A stretch of DNA of 64,000 nt. Source: Chitinibacter sp. GC72 (GTDB lineage: Bacteria > Pseudomonadota > Gammaproteobacteria > Burkholderiales > Chitinibacteraceae). Under the pieces are notes generated by a model, which had not been told where the DNA came from, ran no database searches, and was given only the letters and a program-made list of their open reading frames with translations. Position 1 is the first letter of the stretch. Each line of letters opens with the position of its first letter. Of the stretch, positions 26,069 to 35,151 are shown piece by piece. The position numbers and the translations under genes were made by a program. The stretch is taken from NCBI RefSeq assembly GCF_009760905.1, contig NZ_VIRW01000004.1:39665-103664 (forward strand), given 5' to 3'.

Positions 26069-27208
26069 ATGGGCACAAACGTACAAAATCTGTCTGCGCG
26101 CGTTAATTTAATCGCGGCAGCAGACACCTGGATCGAAGGCGATGCGATTCAGCAGCTCCAAAACACCGCCAAACTCCCCGGCATGCAATACGTTTCCGGC
26201 ATGCCGGATTTACACCCTGGCCGCGGCTATCCGGTTGGTGCGGCTTTTTTCTCTACTGAATACATTTACCCGGCGCTGATTGGTGGCGATATCGGCTGCG
26301 GTATGGCGCTCTGGCAAACTAATCTGGACGCCAGAAAAGTCAGCCTCAGCAAGCTGGAAAAGAAAATCGGCAATATCGATGGCCCCTTGGACGAAGAATG
26401 GCAGGCTGTGATTGCCAGCCAATTACCTGCCGAAATTGGTTTCCGGCAAGCGCTGGGTACTATTGGCGGTGGCAATCATTTTGCCGAATTGCAGTGCTTC
26501 GACGAGATTCACGATGTTGAAGCATTTGCGGCCTTGGGGCTGAACAAAGCGCAGCTGCAACTGTTGGTACACAGCGGCTCGCGTGGCTTGGGGCAGCATA
26601 TTTTGCGCCAGCATATTGACCAGCACGGCCATCAGGGTTTGCTGGCCGACTCAAAGGAATGCCGGGCGTATCTGGCCGAGCATGATCAGGCGGTGCGTTT
26701 TGCCGAAGTAAACCGGCATCTGATTGCGCAGCGCATTCTGGCGAAACTGGCTTGCGATGGGTCGCAAATTCTCGATGTGAATCACAATCTGGTGCTGCCA
26801 GCACAGATGCACGGCCAGCCAGGCTGGATACATCGCAAAGGCGCAACGCCAGCCGATCAAGGCGCGGTGGTGATTCCCGGCTCGCGCGGTGATTACAGCT
26901 ATCTGGTTCAACCCATGCCCAGCGACATCAGCCTGCAATCGCTCGCGCATGGCGCGGGTCGCAAGTGGATGCGCAGCGAATGCAAAGGCCGCTTGAGTGG
27001 CCGCTATACCGTCGCGCAATTGAGCCGCACCAAGCTCGGCAGCCAGGTGATTTGCGCCGATCGCGCGCTGATTTACGAGGAAGCGCCGGAGGCCTACAAA
27101 CCGGCCAGCAATATCATTGCTACCTTGGTCGGCGCAGGGTTGGTCAAAGTGATTGCGCGGCTCAAACCCGTGCTCACCTACAAAACGCGTGGGGAGTGCT
27201 GCGAATGA
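26069..27208 (+). CDS. RtcB-family RNA ligase, PrfH-associated paralog (RtcB2)
   Basis: RtcB metal/GTP motifs (GGDIGCGMA, GGNHFAE, HSGSRGLG, HGAGR). Translationally coupled (ATGA) to the downstream prfH. Confidence 0.85.
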   Translation: MGTNVQNLSARVNLIAAADTWIEGDAIQQLQNTAKLPGMQYVSGMPDLHPGRGYPVGAAFFSTEYIYPALIGGDIGCGMALWQTNLDARKVSLSKLEKKIGNIDGPLDEEWQAVIASQLPAEIGFRQALGTIGGGNHFAELQCFDEIHDVEAFAALGLNKAQLQLLVHSGSRGLGQHILRQHIDQHGHQGLLADSKECRAYLAEHDQAVRFAEVNRHLIAQRILAKLACDGSQILDVNHNLVLPAQMHGQPGWIHRKGATPADQGAVVIPGSRGDYSYLVQPMPSDISLQSLAHGAGRKWMRSECKGRLSGRYTVAQLSRTKLGSQVICADRALIYEEAPEAYKPASNIIATLVGAGLVKVIARLKPVLTYKTRGECCE

Positions 27209-27825
27209 GTTTAATGCAAATCTCCGCCGCGCAAGGGCCGCAGGAATGCCAGCTGGCGGTCGCCAAAGCGCTCGGCCGTATGATTGAAGAGGCCGCACAG
27301 CGCAAGCTGGTGCTGGATCTGCTGGAGCAAGAAGCTGGCGATAAAGCTGGTACTTTGCGCTCGGTATTGCTCAGTATTGATGGCGAAGGCGCAGATCAAC
27401 TGATCCGGCAATGGGAGGGTACGATCCAGTGGATTTGCGCCAGCCCGTATCGCCCCCGGCATCTGCGCAAAAATTGGTTTATTGGTGTTTTTCGCTGCGC
27501 CACGCCTGCGAGCGATCTGGCCAATGAAATCCGTTTTGAAACGACGCGTTCATCTGGCCCCGGCGGGCAGCATGTCAATAAAACCGAATCGGCAGTGCGC
27601 GCCACGCATATCGCCAGCGGCATTACGGTGAAAGTGCAAACCGAGCGCAGCCAGCATGCCAATAAACGGCTGGCCGAGCAGCTAATCGCCCACCGTCTGG
27701 CCAGCCGCGCTGCGGATGAGTTGGGCGCACAGCGCGCAGAACGACGCTTGCAGCACTACCAGCTAGAACGCGGCAGCCCGAAACGGGTTTTCAAGGGCGA
27801 GCAATTTATTGAAAACTTAGCCTGA
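27205..27825 (+). CDS. prfH: Peptide chain release factor H (PrfH)
   Basis: GGQ motif in SSGPGGQHVNKTESAVRATH. Short (~207 aa) RF lacking the codon-recognition domain. Downstream of RtcB2. Confidence 0.85.
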   Translation: MSLMQISAAQGPQECQLAVAKALGRMIEEAAQRKLVLDLLEQEAGDKAGTLRSVLLSIDGEGADQLIRQWEGTIQWICASPYRPRHLRKNWFIGVFRCATPASDLANEIRFETTRSSGPGGQHVNKTESAVRATHIASGITVKVQTERSQHANKRLAEQLIAHRLASRAADELGAQRAERRLQHYQLERGSPKRVFKGEQFIENLA

Positions 27826-27903: not shown

Positions 27904-28251
27904 ATGGCACAAAAATCAGAGCGCACCAAGGTCCTGTTTATTTGCAGCCGCAATCAGTGGCGCAGCCCGACGGCCGAGCAGCTTTGGCGCCAGCATCCGC
28001 GGCTGCAAACGCGCTCGGCGGGCACCAGCCCGAATGCGCGGCATACGGTGTCGGTCGATGATATTCGCTGGGCGGATGTGATTTGCGTGATGGAAGAAAA
28101 GCACCAATCACGGCTGCGCGCGCAATTTAGTCGCTTGCTGAGCAACAAACCCATCCATGTGCTCGATATTCCCGACGACTACCAATTTATGGCGCCAGAG
28201 CTGATCGATCTATTGGAGCAATCGGTGGCTGGCATTCTTGACCTTAACTAA
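27904..28251 (+). CDS. Low-molecular-weight phosphatase-like protein (LMW-PTP/ArsC-type CX5R P-loop)
   Basis: KVLFICSRNQWRSPTAEQ matches the C(X)5R(S/T) P-loop of LMW protein-tyrosine phosphatases. 115 aa. Follows prfH on the same strand. Confidence 0.65.
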   Translation: MAQKSERTKVLFICSRNQWRSPTAEQLWRQHPRLQTRSAGTSPNARHTVSVDDIRWADVICVMEEKHQSRLRAQFSRLLSNKPIHVLDIPDDYQFMAPELIDLLEQSVAGILDLN

Positions 28252-29275
28252 CAACTATCTCTACGCCGCCTTCCACCTGCGTTTGCGTGATATTAACGGG
28301 CAGAAATTGCCTGATCACGTCGATATTACTCAGCAAATGCGCTGACGCGTGCGTTGTCGTAAAGCGCCCCGACCCTGCCAGCGCAAAAGCCAGCACCAAC
28401 TGATCAGCCAAAAACTCGTCCACTGCCGCGCCGCTATGCAAATAGCGCTGCACCTGATGTGCGACTTGCTTGCCGACCGCTTCGGCGCTGACGCCTTTTT
28501 CGCCAAAGCTGGTGAACATTTCGGTGATATTTTCATGCTCAATTTCAATCAGCACCGCATTGCCGGGGCCTTGATCGTTGCTGAGCCCGCGTACCGCAGT
28601 GCTGACGCCAGCAATTTTTTGCTCGATTTCGGCCAGCTCACGCTGCGCGACTTTGGCCGGCACACCCGCAATCAGCGCCGTGGCGCTAATACTGCGCAAA
28701 GCACCGCGCTGGCACAGATCGAAACCCTGCAATGATGGGCACGGCGACACTGTCGCGCAAATTTCGCCACCGCCCGCCGGATAAAAACCGTGCCGCTTTA
28801 GTGTGATTTCTTGCTGCACGCCCATGCGCGCCATCAGCGGCTGCCAAACGCGAATTAGAAAATCGGCCGGCGGCGCGGCTTTATTGTGCGTACCACCCTT
28901 CACCGACACAGAGCTGGGCGCATCGGCAAACCACAGCGCAGGTAATATCGTTTGCAGCACCAGCGTACAGCTACCGGCGGTGCCAATCGCAAAATGGTAA
29001 TCGCCAGCGCGAATCGCGCCGGGCTTGAAACTGAGCGACGTTGAGCCGATCTGAGCGCCGGTCATCTGCGCCCCGCAAATCGCCGCCGCAGCTTCAACCG
29101 CTGTTAAATGCTGGCGTAGCAAGCCGGGTTTGGGGCGCTTGGCGCGGATATTTTTAATCTGGAATGCCTGACCCGTGATCATTGCCAGCGTCAGCGCACT
29201 ACGCAAAATCTGGCCACCGCCTTCGCCGCTAGCGCCGTCGATTTCAATGAGTTGTTTGTTCATTATTATTTTCAC
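28244..29275 (-). CDS. rtcA: RNA 3'-terminal phosphate cyclase
   Basis: IDGASGEGGGQILRSALTLAMITGQAF...LLRQHLTAV; end-to-end similarity to E. coli RtcA. Confidence 0.9.
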   Translation of the reverse strand: MKIIMNKQLIEIDGASGEGGGQILRSALTLAMITGQAFQIKNIRAKRPKPGLLRQHLTAVEAAAAICGAQMTGAQIGSTSLSFKPGAIRAGDYHFAIGTAGSCTLVLQTILPALWFADAPSSVSVKGGTHNKAAPPADFLIRVWQPLMARMGVQQEITLKRHGFYPAGGGEICATVSPCPSLQGFDLCQRGALRSISATALIAGVPAKVAQRELAEIEQKIAGVSTAVRGLSNDQGPGNAVLIEIEHENITEMFTSFGEKGVSAEAVGKQVAHQVQRYLHSGAAVDEFLADQLVLAFALAGSGRFTTTHASAHLLSNIDVIRQFLPVNITQTQVEGGVEIVVS

Positions 29276-29336: not shown

Positions 29337-30143
29337 CTAATTGCTGTGTTGCAGCACCGCTTGGCGCAATAGCTGATCCAGCAAAGCCTGCTGGCCATTG
29401 GGCTTGCGAAAGTCGGTACTCGTCTTATGCTGCTCCGCCAGTTGGTGCTCGATAAACGCATGAATCAATGGAAAGCGCGCGCCATATTCAGCCTCGCCTG
29501 AGCGCATTTTGATCGCCAGTAATTCATTGACTTCACGTACCAACTCAGGCTGATCTTTGAGCATGACTTCGGCCAAAGCGGCAAACTTCATCGGTGGCAT
29601 GCCCAGGCCTGCGTCTATCCACTGCATGGCCAGCAAGGGGCGTAACACGTACAGGTACTTCTTCATCCGCACGGACTCGCTTTGCAGATAGCCACGGAAA
29701 TTCTTTTTGGCCATCGACACATAATGCCAGTGTGCTTTTTGTTCGGAAAAATAGTCGCTCATCAAACCACGCAATGGCTCGGTGAGCGTCGCCTGTTCCT
29801 GATAAATGACTGGCGAATCCAGCCATTCAAACAAGGTCGGATTGGATTTGCCCAGCAAGGCCAGCGCTTTGCGCAATTCCCAACCGCAAATATCGAGCTC
29901 ATCGCTGATCGGCACTTCGATCACATCGCGCTGCGGGGTGACGCTGAGATACCAATCAAGGCGATGAACATAGACAAAACGCACGTCGTAATCGCTATCG
30001 GGCGAAGCAAAGCCCCAGCCACGGCTGCCCGATTCGCAAGCGAACAGAATCGTGACATTGTGACGCGCTTCAATGGCTGCGAGTTCGAGCTGGATGCGCT
30101 CTGCGATTGCCGGATCGATTGGATGTTCACTCAGTATTTTCAT
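29337..30143 (-). CDS. Pol-beta-superfamily nucleotidyltransferase (COG3541-like) embedded in rtc operon
   Basis: CESGSRGWGFASPDSDYDVRFVY contains the G[SG]...D.D nucleotidyltransferase signature. Lies between rtcB and rtcA on the same strand. Confidence 0.65.
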   Translation of the reverse strand: MKILSEHPIDPAIAERIQLELAAIEARHNVTILFACESGSRGWGFASPDSDYDVRFVYVHRLDWYLSVTPQRDVIEVPISDELDICGWELRKALALLGKSNPTLFEWLDSPVIYQEQATLTEPLRGLMSDYFSEQKAHWHYVSMAKKNFRGYLQSESVRMKKYLYVLRPLLAMQWIDAGLGMPPMKFAALAEVMLKDQPELVREVNELLAIKMRSGEAEYGARFPLIHAFIEHQLAEQHKTSTDFRKPNGQQALLDQLLRQAVLQHSN

Positions 30144-30146
30144 TTT

Positions 30147-31367
30147 CTATCCTTTCACACACACCACCTGACGCAGCGTATGCACGACTTCGACCAGATC
30201 GGATTGCGCGGCCATCACGGCGTCGATGTCTTTGTATGCCATCGGGATTTCGTCGATCACGGCTGCGTCTTTACGGCATTCGACGTGCGCGGTGGCTTTG
30301 ATCTGGTCTTCCACGGTAAACAGTTTCTGCGCCTTGGTTCGGCTCATCGTGCGACCGGCGCCGTGGCTGCAGGAACAGAATGATTCTTCATTTCCTAGCC
30401 CGCGCACGATAAAGCTTTTCGCTCCCATCGAACCCGGAATAATCCCCAGCTGGCCTTTCTGTGCCGACACCGCGCCTTTACGCGTTACCAGTACTTCGCT
30501 ACCAAAGTGCGTTTCTTTCTGTACATAGTTATGGTGGCAGTTCACCGCTTCCACATCGGCAGCAAACGGTTTGGTGATGATTTTGCGCGCGGCTGCGATG
30601 ACGTTTTGCATCATCACCATACGGTTACGGCGCGCAAAATCTTGCGCCCAACCCACGGCTTCGACGTAATCGTCAAAATGCTGGCTACCTTCGGTGAAGT
30701 AAGCCAAGTCGCGATGCGGCAAATTGGCAATGTGCGAGCGCATATCGGCCTGCGCCAATTCGATAAAGTGCGTTCCAATCGCGTTCCCTACCCCGCGTGA
30801 ACCGGAATGCAACATAAACCAGACGCGGTTTTCTTCATCGAGACACACTTCGATAAAGTGGTTTCCCGTTCCCAAAGTCCCCAAGTGCTTATGGTTATTG
30901 GTGTTTTTCAAGCGCGGGTATTTATCGGTAATGCGCTTGAAGCCTTCATGCAACTCACCCCACATCGTGTCGACCGACGCGGGTGGCGTATCCCACGAAC
31001 CTTTATCGCGGCCCGCGCGGCTATTGGTGCGACCATGCGGTACAGCGGCTTCAATCGCGCTACGCAATCCGGCCAGATTGTCGGGCAAATCGCTGGCAGT
31101 CAGCGTGGTACGCGCCGCCATCATTCCGCAGCCGATATCAACACCAACGGCGGCAGGAATAATTGCGCCGTGCGTGGGGATCACGCTACCGATGGTGGAG
31201 CCTTTCCCCAGATGTACGTCGGGCATTACGGCCAGATGTTTAAAAATAAACGGCATTTTGGCCGTGTTGATCAACTGCTCGCGTGCTTCGTCTTCGACCG
31301 GAACGCCGCTGGTCCACAGCTTGATGGGCTTACCGTTTTGTACTTGCAAAATATCAAACTTGCTCAT
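30147..31367 (-). CDS. rtcB: RNA-splicing ligase RtcB
   Basis: 406 aa. Motifs GVDIGCGMMA, GTGNHFIE, HSGSRGVG, CSHGAGR. Confidence 0.9.
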   Translation of the reverse strand: MSKFDILQVQNGKPIKLWTSGVPVEDEAREQLINTAKMPFIFKHLAVMPDVHLGKGSTIGSVIPTHGAIIPAAVGVDIGCGMMAARTTLTASDLPDNLAGLRSAIEAAVPHGRTNSRAGRDKGSWDTPPASVDTMWGELHEGFKRITDKYPRLKNTNNHKHLGTLGTGNHFIEVCLDEENRVWFMLHSGSRGVGNAIGTHFIELAQADMRSHIANLPHRDLAYFTEGSQHFDDYVEAVGWAQDFARRNRMVMMQNVIAAARKIITKPFAADVEAVNCHHNYVQKETHFGSEVLVTRKGAVSAQKGQLGIIPGSMGAKSFIVRGLGNEESFCSCSHGAGRTMSRTKAQKLFTVEDQIKATAHVECRKDAAVIDEIPMAYKDIDAVMAAQSDLVEVVHTLRQVVCVKG

Positions 31368-31432: not shown

Positions 31433-32569
31433 CTATTTACCTAACTTGATCATGCCGTTGAGCAATTGATCAAACCCGCCAAAAACCGAGATTTTATCGA
31501 TCCGTTCGGCCAGTTTTTCCAGCGTTTCCAGCTCTTTCAGCCGTAGCGCGGTTGGGTTGTCTTCCATCACTTTGGCGGTATTGAGCAGCGAGCGCGTCGC
31601 GCCGGTTTCTTCGCGGCGGCGGATTACATTGGCCTGCGCGGCTTTTTCGGCCTCGACCACTTGTGCCAGCAGCATTTTCATTTCGCCGGGCAGCACAATA
31701 TCCTTCACGCCCACGCTGTGTATGCACATCCCCAATCCGGCCAGCCGGGTGCGCATATGCGCAGCGACCACGTCGTCGATCAGTTGTTTGTTTTCCAGCA
31801 ATTCGTCCAGCGTGCGGGTGCCCACCGCTGCACGCAAGCCAAACTGCAATTCGCGGTACAGAAAATCCACAGGCTTGGGCAGCTGGGTAAATGCCAGCTC
31901 GATATCGGTCAACTGCCAGTTGGCCGCCAGATTGAGCCGCAAGGAAACTTTGTCCCGGGTCAGGATTTCCTGCCCGCTCACTTCGACGGTTTGCTGGCGG
32001 GTATCGACCAGCTCAACGGCCAGCTCGCGGCCAAAACGCCAGAAGCCATAACGCCCAGGCTTGAGCTGGCGCTGGAATTGGCCGTTGCTATGCAGCAGGC
32101 CGATATGGCTTTCCGGCACTTGCACCTGCAGCACGGTGTTGTTGTTGCGTATGGTTTTGGCGCGCAGCGCGGCCTGCGTCAGCGTTGCCAGCACCGCAGG
32201 CGACAATTCAAATTGCGTACGCAAGTCGATGCGCTCAAAAGTTTGCGGCGCGGCGGCTTTCCAGTACAGCTGGCGTGAGCCGGGCAGCAGGATTTCAGCC
32301 AGTACGCCATTTTCATAGCGCAGCGCCGCTTCGTGGTCGGCCAGCTCGACACGCTGGAAATGCGTCTCGACCAATGCGGCCTCATTACGGCACAGATAAT
32401 CGGCCAGCGCGTGGGTAAAGGCGGCCTCGTCGAGCGAAAAGGTCAGCAAGGTATAGCGTTTGGGCCAGTTCCACAGATGAAATTCACCGGGTTCCAGCAG
32501 TTTTTGTACATCTCCGTTGCGCAGCAACAGGCCACGTTCGTTCTTTTTAACTTGAAAGCGTTGCCACAT
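31433..32569 (-). CDS. SPFH/band-7 (slipin-like) domain protein, first CDS of the rtc operon
   Basis: SPFH core (VSLRLNLAANWQL...VKDIVLPGEMK) with C-terminal coiled coil. Confidence 0.7.
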   Translation of the reverse strand: MWQRFQVKKNERGLLLRNGDVQKLLEPGEFHLWNWPKRYTLLTFSLDEAAFTHALADYLCRNEAALVETHFQRVELADHEAALRYENGVLAEILLPGSRQLYWKAAAPQTFERIDLRTQFELSPAVLATLTQAALRAKTIRNNNTVLQVQVPESHIGLLHSNGQFQRQLKPGRYGFWRFGRELAVELVDTRQQTVEVSGQEILTRDKVSLRLNLAANWQLTDIELAFTQLPKPVDFLYRELQFGLRAAVGTRTLDELLENKQLIDDVVAAHMRTRLAGLGMCIHSVGVKDIVLPGEMKMLLAQVVEAEKAAQANVIRRREETGATRSLLNTAKVMEDNPTALRLKELETLEKLAERIDKISVFGGFDQLLNGMIKLGK

Positions 32570-32639
32570 TTTTATTCTCCTTATTTAAAACCCGGCTGCA
32601 GCGCAGTGCGGATGTGCGGTTGACCAGCGCATGGGCAGG

Positions 32640-32995
32640 AACAAGGGGAGCAGCCCAAGATTGCGGCATTTCCTGTTGTTCCCGCTGATGCGCGGAGAAC
32701 CGGACACCGGCGGCATTGCTGCGGTGGCTCAATGCGCCACACCGGGTACTGCGTGTTTCGTTCGTATGCCCTTGCAGGCGTGGAGCGGGAGTCGAACCCG
32801 CGACAATCGGTTTCATCAACCGAGGCTCTATCCAGTCTGAGCTATCCAGAGGTGGTGAACCGGGAATCGAACCCGGATAACGCAAACCATTGCCATCACC
32901 GTTATGCAGGAGATCATCGGGCGGTATACCCACTGGCAAAACGCCAGCAGTACCGGAGCGGGGTGAGAGCCGCTACCTGTTGCCGGTCAGAGCCG
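32640..32995 (-). ncRNA. Y-RNA-like (YrlA-type) structured leader RNA containing tRNA-mimic modules
   Basis: Minus-strand sequence between the sigma54 start (~33003) and the SPFH gene. It contains ...GGCAATGGTTTGCGTTATCCGGGTTCGATTCCCGGTTCACCACC followed by a near-complete tRNA-like unit with D-arm AGCTCAGACTGGATAGAGC, anticodon-like arm TCGGTTGATGAAACCGA, T-arm GCGGGTTCGACTCCCGC and a shortened acceptor. No ORF. Confidence 0.55.
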
Positions 32996-33014
32996 ATCTG
33001 CATGGCTAATTAAT

Positions 33015-33030
33015 AGCAACGGCTGTGCCA
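33015..33030 (-). promoter_or_regulatory. sigma54 (-24/-12) promoter of the rtc operon
   Basis: Reverse complement reads TGGCACagccgTTGCT, a perfect GG-N10-GC spacing. Positioned ~430 nt upstream of the first CDS with the Y-RNA-like leader between. Confidence 0.8.
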
Positions 33031-33134: not shown

Positions 33135-33160
33135 AATGACGATATAATCAGATCGTCATT
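33135..33160. promoter_or_regulatory. Perfect palindrome AATGACGAT-N8-ATCGTCATT (candidate RtcR UAS / autoregulatory operator)
   Basis: 9-bp inverted arms. ~120 bp upstream of the sigma54 -24 element and overlapping a TATAAT hexamer (33143-33148) 32 nt before the rtcR ATG. Confidence 0.5.
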
Positions 33161-33179: not shown

Positions 33180-34769
33180 ATGAAGCGCACAGTGGTGTTT
33201 GGCTTTGTTGGCACGGTGTTGGATTTTGCCGGGCGGGGTAGTCAGCGTTGGGAAAAGTGGCGGCCAACAATCGGTTTGTGCCAGCACGATGATGTGCTGA
33301 TCAGCCGGATCGAGCTGCTGCACGATAGCCGCAGCAAAAGCCTGTTCGAGCGCCTGAAGCAGGATATTGCGCAGGTGTCGCCCGAAACCGAGGTGGTGAG
33401 TGTTGAGGTGAATCTGAGCGATCCGTGGGATTTCGAGGAGGTGTATGCCTGCCTGCACGATTTTGGGCGCAGTTATGAGTTTGATGTTGAAGCCGAGGAT
33501 TATCTGATCCACATCACCACCGGCACGCACGTGGCGCAGATTTGCTGGTTCCTGCTGGCCGAGGCCTGCTACTTCCCCGCGCGGCTGGTGCAAACTTCGC
33601 CGCCGCGCAAGCGCGAAACCGATGGCGTAGCGGGCAAATACACGCTGATTGATCTGGATTTATCGCGCTACAACAAAATTGCCAGCCGCTTTGCCCAAGT
33701 GCGCGACGAAGCGGTGTCGTTTTTAAAATCAGGCATTGCCACGCGTAACCCGCGCTTTAACCGGATGATCGAGCAGATCGAGCGCGTCGCGATACGCTCG
33801 AAAGCGCCGATTTTGCTGTGCGGGCCAACGGGCGCAGGCAAATCGTTTCTGGCGCGGCGAATTTATGAAATGAAGGTGGCGCGCCATCAAATCAGCGGGC
33901 GCTTTGTCGAAGTCAATTGCGCCACGCTACGCGGCGATAGCGCGATGTCGACTTTGTTCGGGCATGTGAAAGGCGCATTTACCGGCGCACAAACCGAGCG
34001 CGCAGGCTTGCTGCGCAGTGCTGACGGCGGGCTGCTGTTTCTGGATGAAATCGGCGAGCTGGGTCTGGACGAGCAGGCCATGCTGCTCAAAGCTATCGAG
34101 GAAAAGCGCTTTTTCCCTTTTGGTAGTGATAAGGAAGTCACCAGTGATTTTCAGCTGATTGCCGGGACGGTGCGCGATTTAAAACAGTGGGTGGCTGAGG
34201 GTAAATTTCGCGAGGATTTGTATGCGCGGATTAATTTGTGGCTGTACGAGCTACCCGGTCTGGCAGAGCGCAGCGAAGATCTGGAGCCCAATCTGGATTT
34301 TGAATTGCTCCGCTTTGCCAAAGAGCAGGGCGAGCAAGTGCGGTTTAATTCAGAAGCTAAGCAGCGGTTCTTGAAATTTGCTGCTTCAGCGGAAGCTAAA
34401 TGGTCGGGCAATTTTCGCGAACTGTCGGCCGCGGTGACGCGGATGGCGACGCTGGCAGAAAATGGCCGCATTACGCTGGCGCAGGCCGATGAGGAAATCG
34501 ACCGGCTGCGCCTGTCCTGGCAGCTTAGCTCGCCAGGCGTGATTGATGTAGTGTTGGGTGAGCGCGCTAGCGAGCTTGATCTGTTTGACCGGCTGCAACT
34601 CGAGCGGGTGATTCAGGTGTGCCAGGCCGCCGATTCGCTCTCCGACGCCGGGCGGCGCTTGTTCAATATCTCGCGGCAGGAAAAAGCCAAAAGCAATGAC
34701 GCCGACCGGCTACGCAAATATCTGGCGCGGTTTGGGCTGGATTGGGCGAGCGTGAAAGGTACGCGCTGA
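33180..34769 (+). CDS. rtcR: sigma54-dependent transcriptional activator RtcR (CARF-like N-domain + AAA+ + HTH)
   Basis: AAA+ sigma54 activator motifs ([31 protein letters not shown]-like [12 protein letters not shown]). N-terminal non-receiver domain as in RtcR. Divergent to the rtc operon. Confidence 0.9.
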
Positions 34770-34826
34770 CTGGCGCGGAAAAACAAAAAGCCCCAACCGA
34801 AGTTGAGGCTTTTTGCTTAATTCGTG

Positions 34827-34899
34827 TGGGTCGGGAGGGATTCGAACCCTCGACCAACGGATTAAAAGTCCGCTGCTCTACCGACTGAGCTACCGACCC
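34827..34899 (-). tRNA. tRNA-Lys (anticodon TTT)
   Basis: rc: GGGTCGGTAGCTCAGTCGGTAGAGCAGCGGACTTTTAATCCGTTGGTCGAGGGTTCGAATCCCTCCCGACCCA. Canonical cloverleaf; CCA not encoded. Confidence 0.9.
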
Positions 34900-34911
34900 A
34901 GAGGTCTTGTG

Positions 34912-34984
34912 TGTGCGATGGTGGGTCGGGAGGGATTCGAACCCTCGACCAACGGATTAAAAGTCCGCTGCTCTACCGACTGAG
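34912..34984 (-). tRNA. tRNA-Lys (anticodon TTT), second identical copy
   Basis: Identical 73-nt sequence, 12 nt from the first copy. Confidence 0.9.
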
Positions 34985-35151
34985 CTACCGACCCGCGTCG
35001 TCACATACAGAGATGCGCATTATAAGGTTATTTTCGCGCCTGTCAACGATTAATCTGCAGAAATTTTGCCCGGCTTTGGCATTATGCCGCGCGACTAGCC
35101 GCGCTGGCTCGCGGTAAACTACCGCCCTATTGTTGAAAAAAAGGAAAAATC

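Follow-up and report, generated by a model that had tools for sequence, protein, structure and literature searches.

What kind of RNA precedes the RNA-repair operon of Chitinibacter sp. GC72, and with which protein might it work? The window analysed here, that is, the whole stretch of 64,000 nucleotides (nt) from contig NZ_VIRW01000004.1, carries on its minus strand an operon of the order slipin-rtcB-rlaP-rtcA, with rtcR encoded divergently, and the leader of this operon contains two tRNA-like units. An earlier interpretation made without database searches (hereafter, the sequence-only reading) took the leader for a YrlA-type Y RNA accompanied by no Ro60 gene. Comparison of the window with 80 slipin loci from Beta- and Gammaproteobacteria (81 leaders in the leader counts) leads us to favour another identity: the element is probably a b7a-tRNA-type RNA, a non-decoding tRNA mimic upstream of slipin in an RtcB operon, and as such a probable RNA partner of slipin and RtcB.

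Two tRNA-like units in the leader

The two units lie almost next to each other:

32781..32848, minus strand: tRNA-like unit 2 (b7a-tRNA proper), a full cloverleaf with an acceptor of 4 base pairs (bp), recognized by the Rfam tRNA model, ARAGORN, covariation and a model built from relatives
32851..32900, minus strand: reduced tRNA-like unit 1, defined by the minimum free energy (MFE) fold of the unit alone

Unit 2 consists of the acceptor UGGA/UCCA, the D arm GCUC-AGACUGGAUA-GAGC, the anticodon-like arm UCGGU-UGAUGAA-ACCGA and the T arm GCGGG-UUCGACU-CCCGC, and keeps the nucleotides of the tRNA core and elbow (U8, A14, G15-C48, G18 G19, U54 U55 C56 and A58). The Rfam tRNA model matches it locally, over model positions 4-67, and the resulting 35.9 bits exceed the gathering score of 29 (E = 7.5e-4, taken over the whole window); ARAGORN calls a 'tRNA-His(AUG)' over it at 32777-32851, and the model built from relatives (R1) gives it 72.2 bits. 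The sequence-only reading had stated that the region fails tRNA criteria, which does not hold, since both the Rfam model and ARAGORN pass unit 2 as a local match. It was right about the short acceptor, which is only 4 bp long in unit 2, and also in concluding that this is a mimic and not a functional tRNA. Neither unit has the canonical 7-bp acceptor with discriminator and CCA: the acceptor of unit 2 ends without CCA, and that of unit 1 has 5 bp and a CCU tail. Nor does unit 2 have the canonical anticodon loop with U33 and a conserved anticodon; in its 7-nt loop UGAUGAA, G33 replaces U33, and the 'anticodon' varies among relatives.

This structure has been maintained over a wide range of proteobacteria. 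The covariance model of unit 2 gives at least 47 bits in 75 of the 80 loci, always on the strand of slipin and 150-520 nt upstream of it; two further loci have weak matches and three have none. In an alignment of 54 distinct sequences (A2), pairing holds in 94.7% of the cells and drops to 34-45% for slid partners; 174 cells show changes on both sides, where the slid controls have 17-34. Neither the D stem nor the elbow nucleotides of the D and T loops vary among relatives. The acceptor has 3-5 bp across the 54 distinct relatives and 6 bp in Pseudomonas aeruginosa. The anticodon position is not conserved: ARAGORN assigns more than 12 different identities, or none, to the relatives, and many of them have a UUCG or GNRA tetraloop at this place.

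Unit 1 is built of a 5-bp acceptor (GGUGA/UCACC), a mini D hairpin (GCAA-UGGU-UUGC), the T arm CCGGG-UUCGAUU-CCCGG and the tail A-CC(U), and has no anticodon arm. Folded alone, each of the two units adopts the expected fold. In Betaproteobacteria, unit 1 comprises a 6-7-bp acceptor, a short hairpin with GG in its loop, sometimes a second hairpin of the GNRA type, and a T arm, and in most Pseudomonas loci (P. aeruginosa not among them) it is a full cloverleaf with a tetraloop. Its T stem covaries across relatives; the 5' acceptor strand was not put in register by MAFFT, so that the T stem alone was counted. A best-complement search for the acceptor reached at least 6 of 7 in 78% of cases versus 34% for shuffled sequences, only a moderate excess. 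The units follow each other closely. In about 30 of 56 relatives (37 of 56 by a cruder string count) the terminal N-CCA of unit 1 abuts the first acceptor base of unit 2 with zero spacer; the window reads CCU, not CCA, at this position.

The T-loop motif GGTTCGA occurs upstream of slipin in 78 of the 80 loci, nearly always 230-450 nt before the start codon, and 59 leaders (58 loci and the window) have two T arms 50-90 nt, mostly 64-83 nt, apart. Natural variants exist as well. In a Pseudomonas entomophila locus (L062, 3160-3290) and in a metagenome-assembled genome of Aquabacterium (L066, 3100-3200) plain hairpins have replaced both tRNA-like units, with the 5' and 3' domains of the leader kept. 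In a third locus (L076) unit 2 was not detected, and P. aeruginosa (L081, 2610-2655) has a plain hairpin in place of unit 1.

The RNA tracks slipin, not RtcR

The gene rtcR is present in only 54 of the 80 loci, and the structured RNA is kept beside slipin in the roughly 26 loci that lack it; these RtcR-less loci retain the RNA, slipin and usually RtcB. The relationship was also approached from the RNA side, by scanning metagenomes for a DNA pattern with no protein query; 38 hits that had arisen by chance in GC-rich coding DNA were removed by means of the tRNA-unit model. The scan gave 33 matches with a tRNA-like unit, and slipin follows in all 31 that have enough flanking DNA. Since the RNA is kept without rtcR and slipin follows in the RNA-first scan, the RNA tracks slipin and not RtcR. 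This two-way linkage, like the sequence, folds and conservation of the RNA, is a direct observation.

In 19 of the rtcR-less loci, a conserved HNH-domain protein is encoded directly upstream of the leader on the same strand; these proteins are mostly 64-88% identical to one another. Many of the HNH loci have an array of two to nine ordinary tRNA genes before the HNH gene (Asp, His, Glu, Arg, Pro, Phe, Lys, Gln, Asn, Leu, Trp and Met; L031, 1295-2984, and also L002, L009, L012, L021, L026, L034, L037, L044, L049 and L078). The set of tRNAs in these arrays overlaps the targets of known anticodon nucleases. The HNH loci look like a second operon type, one combining spare tRNAs with RNA repair.

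Relationship to b7a-tRNA and other tRNA-like RNAs

According to Burroughs and Aravind (2016), as related in bioRxiv 10.1101/312249, a Band-7 protein and a predicted tRNA-like non-coding RNA beside RtcB, the b7a-tRNA (band 7-associated tRNA), form an alternative to Ro60 and YrlA. The b7a-tRNA, described there as an RNA not yet validated, was proposed to be redundant with Rsr/YrlA (bioRxiv 10.1101/312249). The gene context and the tRNA-like unit 2 of the window both match the description given there. A tRNA-like non-coding RNA adjoins a Band-7 gene in an RtcB operon (slipin starts 212 nt after unit 2 and RtcB follows), and the strong resemblance to authentic tRNA is seen in the Rfam score, the ARAGORN call and the covarying cloverleaf. 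Rfam has no family for b7a-tRNA. The reduced unit 1, the CCA junction, the 5' domain with its AUGCCGC motif and the closed 3' domain could be set beside b7a-tRNA only as far as that secondary description goes.

A close counterpart is known in P. aeruginosa PAO1. Its PA4581.1, 'tRNA-Arg4', is described in a 2026 paper as lacking CCA, having an odd D loop and being detected by quantitative reverse transcription PCR (PMC13637947). We found a unit homologous to unit 2 in a P. aeruginosa locus; PA4581.1 sits between rtcR and the slipin gene PA4582, is homologous to unit 2 and has no CCA either. It differs from the window in its 6-bp acceptor, its ACG loop and the hairpin that replaces unit 1, whereas two units, a 4-bp acceptor and G33 characterize the window. 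Owing to the 6-bp acceptor and the ACG loop, PA4581.1 passes as a tRNA gene.

Transcripts that begin with tRNA-shaped modules are also represented by mascRNA (MALAT1) and by the tRNA genes upstream of tufB, neither of which is homologous to the leader. In mascRNA and in bacterial tRNA-mRNA co-transcripts such as that of tufB, tRNA-like units are cut from longer transcripts; RNase P cleavage would release the modules of the leader likewise. The match of unit 1 to mascRNA is at chance level (16.7 bits, E = 2.2).

Ro60 and YrlA

The sequence-only reading had noted that no Ro60 gene lies at the locus, and indeed a search of the five operon genes and of all other open reading frames of at least 380 amino acids in the window revealed no TROVE/Ro60 domain. 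It considered this absence unusual; however, a Band-7/slipin gene occupies the place of Ro60, an arrangement already predicted, and as slipin replaces Ro60 in such RtcB operons, the missing Ro60 is what one would expect.

The assignment of the leader to the YrlA-type Y RNAs did not withstand comparison. The Rfam YrlA model (RF02553) gives 29.8 bits (E = 3e-4 on 901 nt), far under its gathering score of 69, and no match at the gathering score was found in the window or in five related loci. To obtain this weak match, the model has to combine the T arm of unit 1 with the D arm of unit 2, and to pair the hairpin of unit 1 with the variable region of unit 2 in an outer stem. Such a stem does form in the window when both units are folded together, with GGCAAUGGUUU (32893-32883) pairing with AAACCGAUUGUC (32813-32802) on the minus strand, and this alternative pairing accounts for the match. 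The alternative fold has z = -2.8 relative to shuffled sequences in the window and would disrupt both tRNA-like units. Among relatives, the duplex is not conserved (median z = -0.06, with 4 of 59 below -2), recurs in only 3 of the 58 tested, and conflicts with the cloverleaf helices supported by covariation. The layout differs as well. YrlA contains a permuted tRNA whose acceptor hairpin is closed and whose anticodon stem runs on into the Ro-binding stem, whereas the window has two units of ordinary order, no Ro-binding stem, and slipin instead of Ro60. No closed acceptor hairpin, as a permuted tRNA would have, lies between the T arm of unit 1 and the D arm of unit 2: the intervening UUCACCACCUCUGGA is made up of the 3' acceptor strand of unit 1, the CC(U) tail and the 5' acceptor strand of unit 2.

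The two RNAs also have features in common. Both are non-decoding tRNA mimics with a conserved elbow in an rtcB operon with RtcR and sigma-54, and the D- and T-arm sequences of unit 2 (UAGCUCA..UAGAGC and GCGGGUUCGA.UCCCGC) are almost identical to the YrlA consensus. The partner protein of YrlA is ring-shaped, and the slipin partner here is predicted to be oligomeric. A true YrlA that works with an Ro60/Rsr encoded elsewhere in the genome, for which the weak Rfam match and the long Y RNA-like stem of the joint fold might speak, seems to us very improbable in view of the low score, the non-conserved and conflicting stem and the lack of a TROVE gene among the genes searched. We rejected YrlA membership on score, layout and the non-conserved stem.

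Organization of the whole leader

The tRNA-like units are embedded in a longer leader with further structured parts:

33015..33030, minus strand: sigma-54 (-24/-12) promoter TGGCACAGCCGTTGCT, of the form TGGCAC-N5-TTGCT, with no mismatch to TGGCACNNNNNTTGCW
32920..32980, minus strand: 5' structured domain, from an alignment of 74 leaders (A3), with the same fold in the window MFE
32768..32779, minus strand: small hairpin GCC-UGCAAG-GGC directly after unit 2, from the window MFE; most relatives have a hairpin there
32590..32752, minus strand: 3' structured domain with the conserved motif GCAGUA-CCCG, from the window MFE and the single-sequence folds of relatives
32567..32582, minus strand: Shine-Dalgarno sequence AAGGAG (32582-32577) and slipin start codon ATG (32569-32567), neither of which is paired in the predicted fold

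The perfect sigma-54 promoter claimed by the sequence-only reading was confirmed at 33030-33015 with zero mismatches, and all the sequence features that it quoted for the leader were found on the minus strand where it had placed them. Transcription is predicted to start near 33004, so that about 430 nt of leader would precede the slipin ATG. The tRNA mimic is presumably co-transcribed with the operon, because it sits between the promoter and the first rtc operon gene. Of the 81 leaders, 55 have a site of the sigma-54 type (TGGCAC-N7-GC, with at most two mismatches to TGGCAC-N5-TTGCT) at a distance of 150-200 nt upstream of their first T arm. The AT-rich spacer between rtcR and the leader contains a perfect 9-bp inverted repeat, AATGACGAT-N8-ATCGTCATT (33135-33160), about 105-130 bp upstream of the promoter, which is a candidate enhancer site for RtcR.

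The 5' domain is present in 74 of the 81 leaders and contains two helices, P2 (AGG-U-AGCGG...CCGCU-CC) and P3 (CGGUAC...GUA(UA)CCG), the latter enclosing the hairpin CUGGC-GUUUU-GCCAG. In the alignment of these 74 leaders, 95.2% of the cells in the helices are paired, against 37-54% with slid partners, and 160 cells are changed on both sides, against 17-49. The domain also contains a near-invariant motif, (R)YAUGCCGC, which has the form GUAUACCGC in the window; its 7-mer ATGCCGC occurs in 70 of the 74 leaders and is about as conserved as the T loop. As AUGCCGC is invariant in sequence, a specific binding partner is suggested. Motifs of the (A/G)UGCCGC type occur three times on the minus strand of the window leader (GUAUACCGCC at 32929-32920, AUGCCGC at 32716-32710 and AUGCCGC at 32669-32663). 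This triplication is not general, being found in the window and in one relative (L003); most relatives have one copy.

Downstream of unit 2, the stems of the small hairpin differ among relatives (UGCC..GGCA, GGUC-GMAA-GACC, CUGUC..GACAG). The 3' domain is closed by a helix between ACCCGGU (32747-32741) and GCCGGGU (32596-32590), encloses hairpins at 32740-32724, 32710-32700 and 32695-32682, and leaves AAGGAG free in the window MFE. Single-sequence MFE folds of some 33 relatives with the GCAGUA-CCCG motif show it, in about 27 cases, paired to a stretch that lies 25-70 nt ahead of the start codon. Conserved blocks are visible in this domain among aligned relatives, and RNAalifold also suggested the closing helix in a subgroup of 16 sequences; as the helix is otherwise backed by single-sequence folds only, the evidence for the 3' domain appears weaker than that for the other parts of the leader. 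An all-against-all scan for covarying columns in the full-leader alignment of 74 sequences recovered the known local helices and no trustworthy long-range helix, since the variable 3' half of the leaders aligns poorly.

No Rfam family matches the extended leader architecture, even at E-values up to 10. No published description of the 5'/3' domain architecture was found either, in a comparison that did not extend to the original 2016 account of b7a-tRNA. The extended architecture may thus be new.

Operon genes and their surroundings

The genes of the locus were identified by their Pfam domains:

33180..34769, plus strand: RtcR, divergent sigma-54 activator with a CARF-type N-terminal domain (RtcR 1.4e-84, Sigma54_activat 4e-50)
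31433..32569, minus strand: slipin/Band-7 (SPFH) protein of 378 amino acids, first gene of the operon (Band_7 1.8e-32)
30147..31367, minus strand: RtcB RNA ligase (RtcB 9e-132)
29337..30143, minus strand: RlaP nucleotidyltransferase (RlaP 3.6e-95)
28244..29275, minus strand: RtcA RNA 3'-phosphate cyclase (RTC and RTC_insert)

Slipin, the presumed protein partner of the leader RNA, matches a slipin recorded from Chitinibacter sp. GC72 with 100% identity and is related to stomatin chains in the PDB, several of them from entries with at least 16 chains. Judging from its resemblance to stomatins, which form large oligomers, it is predicted to be oligomeric. Inspection of the sequence by eye only revealed no hydrophobic membrane anchor. 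The stomatin-like core of slipin is preceded by ~185 amino acids in which the beta-rich beginning of the SPFH fold seems to occur a second time (KKNERGLLLRNGD...PGEF resembles ESHIGLLHSNGQ...PGRY). A viral collection contained only one slipin relative, so this is no module typical of phages.

A second RtcB paralogue (26069-27208, plus strand), followed by a gene for an RF-1-domain protein (~27205-27825, plus strand), lies about 1 kb from rtcA. The two genes resemble the RtcB2-PrfH pair of ribosome rescue and repair, and two RNA-repair modules thus stand side by side in the window. On the other side of the locus, just past rtcR and on the strand of the rtc operon, there are two tRNA-Lys(UUU) genes with identical matched sequence (34826-34994, minus strand). 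Their position is the one at which RtcR-less relatives carry tRNA arrays.

Possible mechanism

If the RNA is a partner of slipin and RtcB, the following course of events can be envisaged. The leader would be the first ~430 nt of the slipin-rtcB-rlaP-rtcA transcript, made from the RtcR-dependent sigma-54 promoter, and would fold into four parts: the 5' domain, the reduced unit, the cloverleaf with its short acceptor, and the closed 3' domain, which does not cover the ribosome-binding site. The tRNA-like units might be cut out by RNase P and further enzymes of tRNA maturation; processing is hinted at by the zero-spacer CCA junction and by the YrlA of Mycobacterium smegmatis, which is cut by RNase P and has CCA added (PMC4201824). 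By analogy with Ro60-YrlA, the folded RNA would bind oligomeric slipin, and its conserved tRNA elbows would serve RtcB, and perhaps RlaP and RtcA, as a platform or cofactor in their action on damaged tRNA or rRNA. The suggestion of the sequence-only reading that the mimic serves the Rtc system directly would then be correct in part: the RNA probably serves the repair system, though not chiefly as a source of ligands for the CARF domain of RtcR.

Several considerations weigh against this interpretation. For GC72, transcription from the promoter, processing, binding to slipin and an effect on repair are all steps that we infer. The assignment to b7a-tRNA relies on the secondary description in bioRxiv 10.1101/312249. 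Judging by the loci with replacement hairpins and by P. aeruginosa, which does without unit 1, the tRNA shape is not strictly required. In the window, efficient processing by RNase P is uncertain, given the CCU and 5-bp acceptor of unit 1 and the 4-bp acceptor of unit 2. Lastly, the constant placement of the element in the 5' leader fits a role in cis equally well.

We also put forward, tentatively and at clearly less than even likelihood, a broader version in which the functional unit is the whole leader of about 430-500 nt. It would be a multi-domain structured RNA with replaceable tRNA inserts, forming the RNA component of a soluble, stomatin-like slipin assembly that cooperates with RtcB. 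Its 5' domain would be formed by the two covarying helices, one of them enclosing a hairpin, with the near-invariant AUGCCGC bulged. The tandem mimics, arranged with zero spacer, would be reduced in complementary ways, one keeping the acceptor/CCA end and the other the anticodon-type arm, and as modules they would be near-universal but replaceable. The same RNA would then be used in two types of operon, one with RtcR and sigma-54 and the other with the HNH protein and often a tRNA array.

Alternative explanations

That the units are working tRNA genes, decayed tRNA pseudogenes or remnants of an integration site has almost no credibility left. It could appeal to the Rfam and ARAGORN calls of unit 2, to the annotation of the P. 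aeruginosa copy as tRNA-Arg and to the two real tRNA-Lys genes nearby; however, the 4-bp acceptor, G33, missing CCA and variable 'anticodon' rule out decoding, and neutral decay is incompatible with the compensatory changes seen in two classes of proteobacteria. The real-tRNA and pseudogene readings were rejected on the covariation and the variable anticodon. Another alternative holds that the mimics are decoys or sacrificial substrates for tRNA-cutting toxins, whose cyclic-phosphate fragments feed the CARF domain of RtcR or become substrates of RtcB. It agrees with the 7-nt loop of unit 2 in the window, with the activation of RtcR by 2',3'-cyclic-phosphate tRNA fragments in Salmonella and with the suggestion that YrlA's tRNA-like domain might act as a competitive inhibitor of the nuclease (PMC7790460). 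Yet Salmonella YrlA is not cleaved by the nuclease (PMC7790460), the leader is made only after RtcR has fired, and the place where nucleases usually cut, the anticodon loop, shows no conservation and takes the form of a stable tetraloop in many relatives. Moreover, about 26 of the 80 loci keep the RNA without rtcR, and 19 of these have the HNH protein, many with a tRNA array as well. For the RNA as a whole we therefore regard the decoy function as improbable, and the idea of the sequence-only reading that the mimic is a built-in source of fragments for RtcR is disfavoured as a general function by the rtcR-less loci and the tetraloops.

A serious rival is a purely cis-acting leader, whose folds would be processing, stability or translation signals for the slipin-rtcB mRNA and which would yield no RNA acting in trans. 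For instance, an RNase P cut could set the 5' end of the mRNA, and the closed 3' domain could protect this end and present the ribosome-binding site. Such a leader would explain why the element always lies on the strand of slipin, 210-520 nt ahead of the slipin start, and nowhere else, why the closure of the 3' domain immediately precedes an unpaired Shine-Dalgarno sequence, and why plain hairpins (L062 and L066) or an undetected unit 2 (L076) occur in place of the tRNA-like units. On the other hand, the conserved elbow, the invariant D stem and the CCA encoded in many relatives exceed the needs of a cleavage signal, and the invariant AUGCCGC suggests a specific binding partner. Furthermore, rtcBA operons without slipin, such as that of E. 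coli, are not known to have such a leader. On this evidence a purely cis-acting leader appears unlikely, while still deserving attention, and a b7a-tRNA-type partner of slipin and RtcB remains the explanation that we favour.

Implications

Among bacterial RtcB repair systems, which must choose and handle their substrates, the Ro60-Y RNA branch has been studied, while the slipin branch, found in P. aeruginosa and many Beta- and Gammaproteobacteria, is backed by bioinformatic prediction only. The window is a clean, divergent example of this already predicted kind. The comparison supplies the folds of the modules, the invariant bases (D stem, elbow and AUGCCGC) and natural variants without one or both tRNA modules, and the zero-spacer CCA junction predicts processing by RNase P. 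Annotators should also take note that a 'tRNA' called between rtcR and a slipin gene, PA4581.1 for example, is not a decoding tRNA.

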